Source: Sminthopsis crassicaudata (Eukaryota). From it: 64,000 nt of DNA. The position numbers and the translations under genes are program-made. Of this stretch, positions 24,630 to 26,225 are shown piece after piece; the stretch's first letter is position 1, and the number at the start of each line of letters is the position of its first letter. Location: contig NC_133621.1 in the NCBI RefSeq assembly GCF_048593235.1, forward strand, positions 299,345,146 through 299,409,145, read 5' to 3'. A model generated the notes under the pieces. It worked only from the letters and a program-made list of their open reading frames with translations, was not told the DNA's origin and searched no databases.

Positions 24630-26225
24630 CTAGTAGCAAGTCAACTGACGTTGGCATTGGCGTATAAGCCAATAAGGGCACTCTCTTTTCCAATGACCGA
24701 GCTGTTTACAGTAAAAGCATGCATTAGGGTGAAAGCACCTCTGAGGACCTTGTATTTTAGGGCCTTGCCAAACCACCATCTTCAACTCCGATCTAAGTTT
24801 CCAGTAGGCTTCAGCTACGGATATTAATTCTTCCATGGATAGTTCTTTCCACTTCACACAAGCCTGCAACTGTTCTTGAATGTGGGGGAGAAGGCCTTGG
24901 ACAAAAGTGATTGCCATCCCTTGGGTGGCACCATTGGCTGGGTCATCAATGCCAGAGTGTTCCTCAAAGACTTTTTTAAATCGGTCAAAATACCTGCCAG
25001 GTTCCTCATCTATTTCTTGCTTACAGCTTATAATTTTCTCCCAATCAGGTTTTTTGTGGCAGACTACTGGAATAGCATTGAGTAAAGCCTGCCAGACCCA
25101 AATTAAGTGTTTCCCTTTCCCAGGATCATTCATTGGCCAAAGTGCCTCTTCAAAGAGGTGCTCTCTGACTTTTCTGGGCAGTTTAATTTTCAAAAAGGTG
25201 TTTATATCTGCCCAGGAGGGGTTAAAAACATCAATGATGTAAGACAATTGTTTCCTAAACTCCATTGGGTTTTCCTCAATGCTAGGAAGCTTGTGAACCA
25301 TAAAAAACAAATCCTGAGGCCTAATGGTACAATCACTATAACATCTGTTCCACACTTGGTACCCTATCCCTGAAGGCCTAGGAGGACACAGCCAGGTGTA
25401 TTCAGCATTTGGGACTTCTAATGGTGGTTGGGGTAAAGAAGAAGAGGGAGCTAGAGCCGGAGGTGGAGGGGCAGCAGCTGGAACTGGAGGGGTAGCAGCT
25501 GGAGATGGAGCCGGAGGTGGAGGGGCAGCAGCTGGAGATGGAGCCGGAGGTGGAGGGGCAGCAGCTGGAGATGGAGCCGGAGGTGGAGGGGCAGCAGCTG
25601 GAGATGGAGCCGGAGGTGGAGGGGCAGCAGCTGGAGATGGAGCCGGAGGTGGAGGGGCAGCAGTTGGAGATGGAGCTGGAGGTGGAGGGGCAGCAGCTGG
25701 AGATGGAGCCGGAGGTGGAGGGGCAGCAGCTGGAGATGGAGCCGGAGGTGGAGGGGCAGCAGCTGGAGATGGAGGGGCAGCAGCTGGAGATGGAGCCGAA
25801 GGTGGTGGTGGAGGGGCAGCTTTCTTTTTGGGAACGTTTTGAGAACTTGGTATATTCTGTTTTGGTGCAGAGTGATTTAAAGACTCAAAAGTATGGATCT
25901 TATCTTCCAGTTTCTTAATGGTATCCCTATGATGCCGATTCTGAGCTTCTGTGTACCAATCAAAGAAAGCTTTCCACTCACCTTGCCTGAGTTTAGAGCC
26001 GTGAGCTTCTAGGACCTTCTTCAGGTGCATTATTTTACCCAAGTCAAATGATCCTTCTAGTGGAAACCACCGAGAGCAATCAGAAGGCTCATTAGCTCTC
26101 GTAAGCCTATTCCACTGAAGCAGAAATTTGCAGCACTTTGGGTGGTAATGGAGGTACATATATAATGCTGGCGTTCCTGTATCTGGAAAAGCTAGTTTTC
26201 CACCTTTAGAAGTGTTGTTCCCCAT
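24630..26225 (-). CDS. Intact class I (gamma/epsilon-like) endogenous-retrovirus Gag, 531 aa; candidate co-opted gene
   Basis: MGNNTSK myristoylation motif; MA-like GTPA.YMY..W..LT..WFPLEGSFDL; MHR-like KQEIDEEPGRYFDRF (~24975-25025); CX2CX4HX4C CFYCKQLGHWKREC (24678-24719); GGAATGG Kozak; no internal stop. Confidence 0.92.
   Translation of the reverse strand: MGNNTSKGGKLAFPDTGTPALYMYLHYHPKCCKFLLQWNRLTRANEPSDCSRWFPLEGSFDLGKIMHLKKVLEAHGSKLRQGEWKAFFDWYTEAQNRHHRDTIKKLEDKIHTFESLNHSAPKQNIPSSQNVPKKKAAPPPPPSAPSPAAAPPSPAAAPPPPAPSPAAAPPPPAPSPAAAPPPPAPSPTAAPPPPAPSPAAAPPPPAPSPAAAPPPPAPSPAAAPPPPAPSPAAAPPPPAPSPAATPPVPAAAPPPPALAPSSSLPQPPLEVPNAEYTWLCPPRPSGIGYQVWNRCYSDCTIRPQDLFFMVHKLPSIEENPMEFRKQLSYIIDVFNPSWADINTFLKIKLPRKVREHLFEEALWPMNDPGKGKHLIWVWQALLNAIPVVCHKKPDWEKIISCKQEIDEEPGRYFDRFKKVFEEHSGIDDPANGATQGMAITFVQGLLPHIQEQLQACVKWKELSMEELISVAEAYWKLRSELKMVVWQGPKIQGPQRCFHPNACFYCKQLGHWKRECPYWLIRQCQRQLTCY
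25453..25821. repeat. 33-bp coding tandem repeat in gag (AAAPPPPAPSP); 8 full copies at 25501-25764 plus partial flanking units
   Basis: Unit GGAGATGGAGCCGGAGGTGGAGGGGCAGCAGCT; only two substitutions across the 8 copies. Confidence 0.97.

Follow-up and report, generated by a model that had tools for sequence, protein, structure and literature searches.

A spliced, single-copy retroviral gag beside EIF3L in Sminthopsis crassicaudata is very probably a domesticated gene with intact relatives in other marsupials

An intact retroviral gag lies between an ankyrin-repeat gene and EIF3L in the marsupial Sminthopsis crassicaudata, and we consider it very probable that this locus is a domesticated host gene. 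A first-pass annotation of the window (the 64,000-nucleotide stretch of DNA analysed here) had proposed domestication under purifying selection, and domestication is supported: intact relatives occur in five other marsupials, none of the roughly 16 to 34 stop codons expected under neutrality has appeared, the transcript is spliced, and searches turned up no young multicopy family. The annotation had not mentioned the minus-strand orientation of the gene, a 33-nt tandem array within it, or its splicing.

The gag ORF occupies window positions 24630-26225 on the minus strand, where 531 codons run from an ATG at 26225 to a TAG at 24630-24632, all inside a single coding exon. ORF listing and translation bore out the claim that these codons are uninterrupted; the gag frame is the longest stop-free frame (544 aa) among the 139 frames of at least 100 aa in the window, the runner-up reaching 300 aa. 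The start codon has the good Kozak context ascribed to it (G at both -3 and +4), and, as had been argued, there is no gag-pol readthrough, the terminal TAG being followed by CTG TCC TAA. The putative matrix domain (aa 1-115; 25881-26225) carries the G2/S6 myristoylation motif, with both residues present here and the motif found in five of six marsupial proteins. That the N-terminus is MA-like is also indicated by the Atlas, in which the first 120 residues score as retroviral matrix (feature matches to MA families of 0.89-0.93, which we treat as a lead), and by alignment of this region with the MA of reptile ERV Gags. A Pro-rich linker delimited by protein comparison follows (aa 116-290; 25356-25880), most of which is taken up by an in-frame tandem array of a 33-nt (11-codon) unit, detected by repeat search at 25485-25774, whose 8.8 copies are 98% alike and account for about one-fifth of the ORF. 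A PSAP at aa 142 of the linker is found in this species only. The capsid domain (aa 291-478; 24792-25355) contains the major homology region (MHR; 24981-25019), in which Q403, E407, Y412 and R415 match the motif originally described and are invariant in all six marsupial proteins. The single CCHC zinc knuckle, at aa 503-516 (24678-24719), is likewise as annotated, with a Pfam zf-CCHC match at E 3.4e-6 and a counterpart in 6/6 marsupial proteins. A Gag_p30 match (E 6.3e-5) is weaker than Pfam's curated cut-off.

Comparisons of fold and sequence support the assignment of this protein to the epsilon-like class I retroviral Gags. A model of the capsid (residues 286-520, from a 65-row alignment) reached a mean pLDDT of 90.4; the full-length Gag model was unusable (pLDDT 42). 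The best solved structures for the capsid model are the MLV CA lattices 6hwx and 6hww (E 1e-8 and 5e-8), and MLV capsid is also the best match to solved structures by sequence. In a library of viral models the top match is a turtle herpesvirus protein, with the Gags of WEHV2, a Rhinella ERV and WDSV at ranks 2-4. The class I, epsilon-like placement proposed in the annotation gains support from these ranks and from the reverse transcriptase of a close turtle relative (P0012), which is nearest to MLV/XMRV-type RT (E 1e-123 versus 1e-44 for foamy virus), the gag locus itself being without RT. The CA fold with its MHR, the N-terminal MA with a myristoylation motif and the single CCHC knuckle are all features of class I (gamma/epsilon-like) Gags. 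Outside marsupials, the nearest relatives by profile (best E 1.6e-66) and by fold are epsilon-like Gags of reptiles and fish (Pogona LOC110081014, Pelodiscus ERVs, WEHV2 and WDSV) together with 'ICP4c' of Chelonid alphaherpesvirus 5 (ChHV5). The reptile and fish Gags differ in being 22-37% identical to the marsupial protein in CA-NC, and many of them have late-domain motifs or an attached pol. We rejected an ERV-L (class III) origin, as in Fv1, because the nearest folds are MLV and epsilon CA, and a Ty3/gypsy (metaviral) origin, as in Arc, PEG10 and PNMA, on the basis of Pfam, Atlas features and fold matches.

Several of the related sequences deserve mention in their own right. The closest non-marsupial Gags, P0007 (Pogona vitticeps LOC110081014) and P0008 (four Logan members, with a linker built of repeats), both lack the CCHC knuckle and are candidates for further domesticated gags. 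The P0010 cluster (Ochotona princeps LOC131482654 and five Logan members) comprises a Gag-like ORF of 422-431 aa with a myristoylation motif and CCHC that is kept in several assemblies; it is perhaps another co-opted gag, possibly wcs1. A metagenome scan with 429 pattern matches yielded three loci, and the two that were examined proved to be bacterial phenylalanyl-tRNA synthetase beta-like genes, and therefore chance matches.

The turtle herpesvirus protein is HP37 'ICP4c' (P0018; AHA93385.1 / V5NX06), in which residues 219-671 are Gag-like. It matches the marsupial gag profile from the myristoylation site through CA (E 5.8e-27; hhalign 99.6%) and is the top fold match of the capsid model (TM 0.77, rmsd 2.7), and on the evidence of profile and modelled fold we regard HP37 as a retroviral MA-CA Gag. 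In the ChHV5 genome table the next entries after HP37, and on its strand, are HP36, an aspartic protease of retroviral type, and HP35, a TM protein of a retroviral env (PMC3462797, as far as its accessible text goes). This gag-pro-env order suggests a pol-less retroviral cassette inside the herpesvirus. The accessible parts of the ChHV5 papers, PMC3462797 among them, mention env, with or without the protease domain, and call HP37 ICP4-like rather than Gag. Reading HP37 as a Gag is possibly more novel than the marsupial gag itself, but the literature search on this point was limited and we do not call it unreported.

Of the rest of a provirus we found no trace beside the gag. The claim that protease, pol and env are missing downstream was borne out in three ways: the motifs D[TS]G[AS], Y[VM]DD and LPQG are absent from the three minus frames of 19000-24629; protease, RT, integrase and Env families matched none of the 98 minus-strand flank frames of at least 38 aa (15100-24629 and 26226-29400); and tblastn with two pol-bearing relatives found no pol in window 15-30 kb, while detecting it in an unrelated ERV locus (L002) used as a control. 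Nor do the two flanks share an LTR-like direct repeat, again as annotated, their sole similarities being high-copy interspersed repeats at 27165-27958. One LTR candidate was considered and rejected: this LTR-sized element of about 400 bp (17074-17476), situated between the ankyrin gene and gag, is a member of a different, high-copy family (at least 40 copies, 86-89% identical), and it has no upstream partner.

Genomic copy number, one of the checks the annotation had suggested, was assessed by protein and DNA searches of the 3.24-Gb genome, in which copy counts are lower bounds; these returned one intact gag copy, and the best match of the koala protein in the Sminthopsis genome is this same locus. 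A young non-autonomous ERV with many near-identical copies is thus rejected. There is one clear paralogue, on C2 at about 418.2 Mb (L020:4446-4994; G000:C2), which is 60.6% identical at the nucleotide level over 568 nt, spans part of the Pro-rich repeat and the N-terminal domain of CA (CA-NTD), and is broken into three frames with stops. It is an old duplicate or a sister insertion, and its decay shows the effect of a similar degree of divergence in the absence of selection.

On one side the gag is bordered by EIF3L, whose start codon and first coding exons lie at 30544-32211 on the plus strand and whose identity was confirmed against solved structures (E 2e-37). On the other, downstream of gag and on the same minus strand, is an ankyrin-repeat gene (10927-14992, with ankyrin-repeat exons at 10927-12522), which we take to be ANKRD54. 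Within EIF3L, a 210-nt inverted repeat (37243-37452 and 38908-39117, 90% complementary) probably consists of two opposed SINE copies.

Transcription, whose absence would have counted against domestication, is indicated by spliced minus-strand transcripts in contigs from four studies. Of 22 listed runs from seven studies, none of them labelled as RNA, 20 shared at least half of the query words, and four, from four studies, were aligned to 25830-30480; all of these sequences are contigs whose RNA nature is presumed. The joint 26241>26895 is present in 4/4 runs, with a short side of 84 letters in X3 and X17 and of 28 in X1 and X2. Every gag intron, read on the minus strand, has GT-AG ends, and DNA searches of the genome found no processed copy of the gag exons, so we take the joints to reflect splicing. 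One X17 contig of 782 nt holds three exons (29383-29583, 26895-26978 and the coding exon) with zero mismatches, and an X2 contig carries an extra exon at 28652-28825. The coding exon thus opens with a splice acceptor boundary and 18 nt of 5' UTR (26226-26243), and upstream of it, all on the minus strand, lie non-coding exon 2 (82 nt of unique sequence, 26897-26978), the optional non-coding exon seen in one of the four runs (28652-28825) and the 5'-most exon seen (29383-29615), which consists of unique CpG-rich sequence and is divergent from EIF3L. A single short upstream ATG stands at the far end of the main transcript form. The optional exon has two out-of-frame ATGs, a possible translational brake, with an ATG frame that overlaps the gag start and ends 17 nt into the gag ORF. 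At the other end of the gene, candidate polyadenylation signals occur within 23988-24309 on the minus strand (ATTAAA at 24309 and AATAAA at 23993, by sequence motif).

The 5'-most exon lies at most 930 nt from the EIF3L start codon, and the CpG observed/expected ratio is 0.55-0.94 over 28.5-32 kb. We infer that gag is transcribed from the EIF3L CpG-island promoter in the reverse direction, from which broad expression would follow. The four runs gave no contig cover at 29730-30480, which leaves the start site unfixed. An LTR-derived promoter was rejected, the exon 1 and exon 2 regions being unique sequence; the repeats in the 5' region of the gene are limited to small, old fragments near 28410-28480 and 28580-28655.

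We recovered intact relatives in koala, wombat, brushtail possum, tammar and Dromiciops, with one protein each, 52-58% identical. These are the five proteins that passed E 0.001 among 270 candidates, in a search that sees annotated intact ORFs only and to which gene losses are invisible. The records of the relatives include the genes LOC110205767, LOC114051728, LOC118850355 and LOC122727560 and the proteins XP_020838223 and XP_027729973. Koala and tammar each have several transcript models for their one protein, and no gag relative was found among the annotated proteins of opossum, devil and antechinus. Shorter forms were absent at 30-216 aa and at 140-448 aa were limited to Dromiciops, whose model is without the myristoylated N-terminus. 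Among 30 related CA sequences the six marsupial proteins form one clade (support 100/99). A tree of the six alone groups the diprotodonts (98/98) and, among them, koala with wombat (87/89) and possum with tammar (89/90), as in the accepted phylogeny; the Sminthopsis lineage is a long branch in it (0.57). When outgroups are included the Sminthopsis protein branches below Dromiciops, which differs from the species tree and is unsupported (89/32). The relatives lie on contigs of 295-314 Mb in four species, a weak hint of shared position.

On the marsupial tree about 34 nonsense changes would be expected under neutrality, or about 16 by a CA-only tree, and none is seen. Invariant columns are distributed unevenly among domains (p=0.0017), with 13/18 in the knuckle, 33/62 in the MA core, 45/90 in the C-terminal domain of CA (CA-CTD), 33/98 in CA-NTD and 6/22 in the spacer before the knuckle. 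The MA-to-CA linker ranges from 88 to 213 aa among the relatives, with length changes that are in frame in all six, and its 11/22-aa period is expanded in Sminthopsis, tammar and possum. Within Sminthopsis, one of three coding differences is non-synonymous and the other two are synonymous; the non-synonymous one is at window position 25990, in matrix codon 79, in run X2. Such differences number 2/396 in coding and 30/2354 in non-coding sequence, which is not significant (p=0.31).

As a complete explanation, antiviral role included, we tentatively put forward the following, to which we give something close to even credence. An epsilon-like class I retrovirus would have integrated in an ancestor of Australian marsupials and Dromiciops; its pol, env and LTR pair would have decayed beyond recognition, and gag would have been retained as a host gene, transcribed away from EIF3L out of the CpG-island promoter and presumably expressed broadly. 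By what is known of retroviral biology, the Gag would be myristoylated, go to membranes, bind RNA and build an immature-type lattice, which would never be cleaved because no protease is encoded. Its most likely job, proposed by analogy and with some reservation, would be antiviral and dominant-negative: it may bind the Gag of active ERVs or of class I retroviruses, or co-assemble with it, and so interfere with the assembly, maturation or release of these viruses, much as the transdominant Gag of enJSRV does. Precedent for restriction by an endogenous Gag comes from Fv1 and from the transdominant enJS56A1 Gag, which polymerises with the Gag of incoming JSRV (PMC12386078, in its accessible text). 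Like the Sminthopsis gag, both are host-kept gags, but Fv1 acts after entry and derives from an ERV-L-like element (accessible text of PMC9604959), and enJS56A1 is a young provirus close to its target, whereas the Sminthopsis gag is old and class I.

Several leads tilt us towards an antiviral role: the protein evolves fast, with a long branch in the Sminthopsis lineage, its CA-NTD is less conserved than its CA-CTD, the promoter is probably broad, and budding motifs are largely missing. Late-domain motifs are present in one of the six marsupial proteins versus 13 of 20 full-span relatives, a difference that represents one evolutionary event and serves as a lead only, and the other seven of those 20 relatives, which also have no such motif, count against this argument. 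It also counts against an antiviral job that the nearest viral relatives come from reptiles and fish, so that no present-day co-assembly target is identified in marsupials. The retained G2 and knuckle would fit an RNA-carrying particle equally well, and one reading, which we regard as rather unlikely overall, is that the domesticated Gag resembles Arc and PEG10 in making vesicles or virus-like particles that take RNA from cell to cell. This reading would account for a G2/S-T6 motif kept in 5/6 proteins, a knuckle in 6/6, an invariant MHR, a whole CA that folds confidently as a model, and the 7-10 basic residues that precede the knuckle in the four diprotodonts; yet just three basic residues stand there in Sminthopsis and Dromiciops, no PPxY, PTAP or YPxL motif is conserved, the protein evolves fast (55-58% identity overall), and the promoter is probably of housekeeping type and not tissue-specific.

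The peaks of conservation in knuckle, MA core and CA-CTD, and the repeated in-frame expansion of the linker, would also be in keeping with a non-viral role inside the cell, as a membrane-anchored RNA-binding or scaffold protein in which the Pro-rich linker is an SH3/WW platform or a spacer. A single new role usually lets some domains decay, however, and here all three Gag domains have been kept together, while the linker varies more than twofold in length; we therefore think such a role unlikely. Still less probable, and in our view very unlikely, is that there is no single domesticated gene at all, and that we are seeing either separate insertions of a marsupial virus lineage codiverging with its hosts or a neutral remnant passively transcribed from the EIF3L promoter. 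Several annotated marsupials do lack a match, genomic position was examined in the Sminthopsis genome alone, and divergent transcription is common at CpG islands. Against this stand one match per species, a tree that fits the species tree, the lack of pol or an LTR pair, the contrast with a decayed paralogue of similar divergence, and the absence of the 16-34 expected stops.

The gene itself is probably already known. Systematic screens of co-opted retroviral gag genes exist, reportedly including a marsupial one, and the early RefSeq accessions of the koala and wombat models mean that such screens would probably have caught it. Wang, Gong and Han reportedly described in 2019 the genes wcs1 in placentals and wcs2 (wucaishi2) in marsupials, the latter said to be a co-opted retroviral gag with positive selection, broad expression and lineage losses, and to date from before crown marsupials. 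The other traits reported for wcs2 all fit the Sminthopsis gag, although wcs2 is reportedly older than crown marsupials and we found no opossum protein; on balance the two are likely the same gene. There is a small additional probability that it is listed instead in a 2020 catalogue (Wang and Han, MBE 37:3232). Three features may be new to the literature, namely the exon structure, the start divergent from EIF3L and the expansion of the 11-aa repeat. The 2019 study (Wang, Gong and Han, J Virol 93:e00542-19) is cited in the accessible text of PMC12129022. Literature searches by the relatives' LOC ids, by neighbour genes and by the name wcs2/wucaishi returned nothing relevant to the gene, the accessible parts of PMC11334065, PMC11011659, PMC12839241, PMC9604959, PMC13709493 and PMC7786948 do not mention it, and no functional test of it was found in the literature searched.

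Among described systems, gagV1 (HERV-V, simian primates) is likewise a co-opted retroviral gag that has stayed intact across one clade of mammals (PMC9604959, in part); it is placenta-specific and lies in a provirus with env, whereas nothing recognisable is left of the provirus around the Sminthopsis gag, whose transcript is spliced from CpG-rich sequence that is unique in the genome. PEG10, PNMA-MS1 and SIRH12 occur in marsupials (accessible text of PMC11011659 and PMC12839241), and these, with Arc, resemble the Sminthopsis gag in being domesticated capsid genes; they are metaviral (Ty3/gypsy), while it is retroviral, with an MA and an MLV/epsilon-type CA.

The kind of gene described here is not new, since more than 100 retroviral gag co-options have been catalogued (PMC8321522, in its accessible text), but few domesticated Gags of true retroviral type still combine matrix, capsid and zinc knuckle as this one does. 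Given the exon map, the pattern of conservation by domain and the promoter that it probably shares with EIF3L, two questions become directly testable in marsupial cells, namely restriction of class I retroviruses and packaging of RNA. We also see a slim chance that this is a gene other than wcs2: an undescribed Australidelphian domestication of a full MA-CA-NC Gag, expressed broadly through reverse use of the EIF3L promoter, with budding motifs lost and the spacer lengthened by independent in-frame repeats, that would act as a co-assembly restriction factor against class I retroviruses. If true, this reading would bear on why marsupial lineages differ in ERV load.
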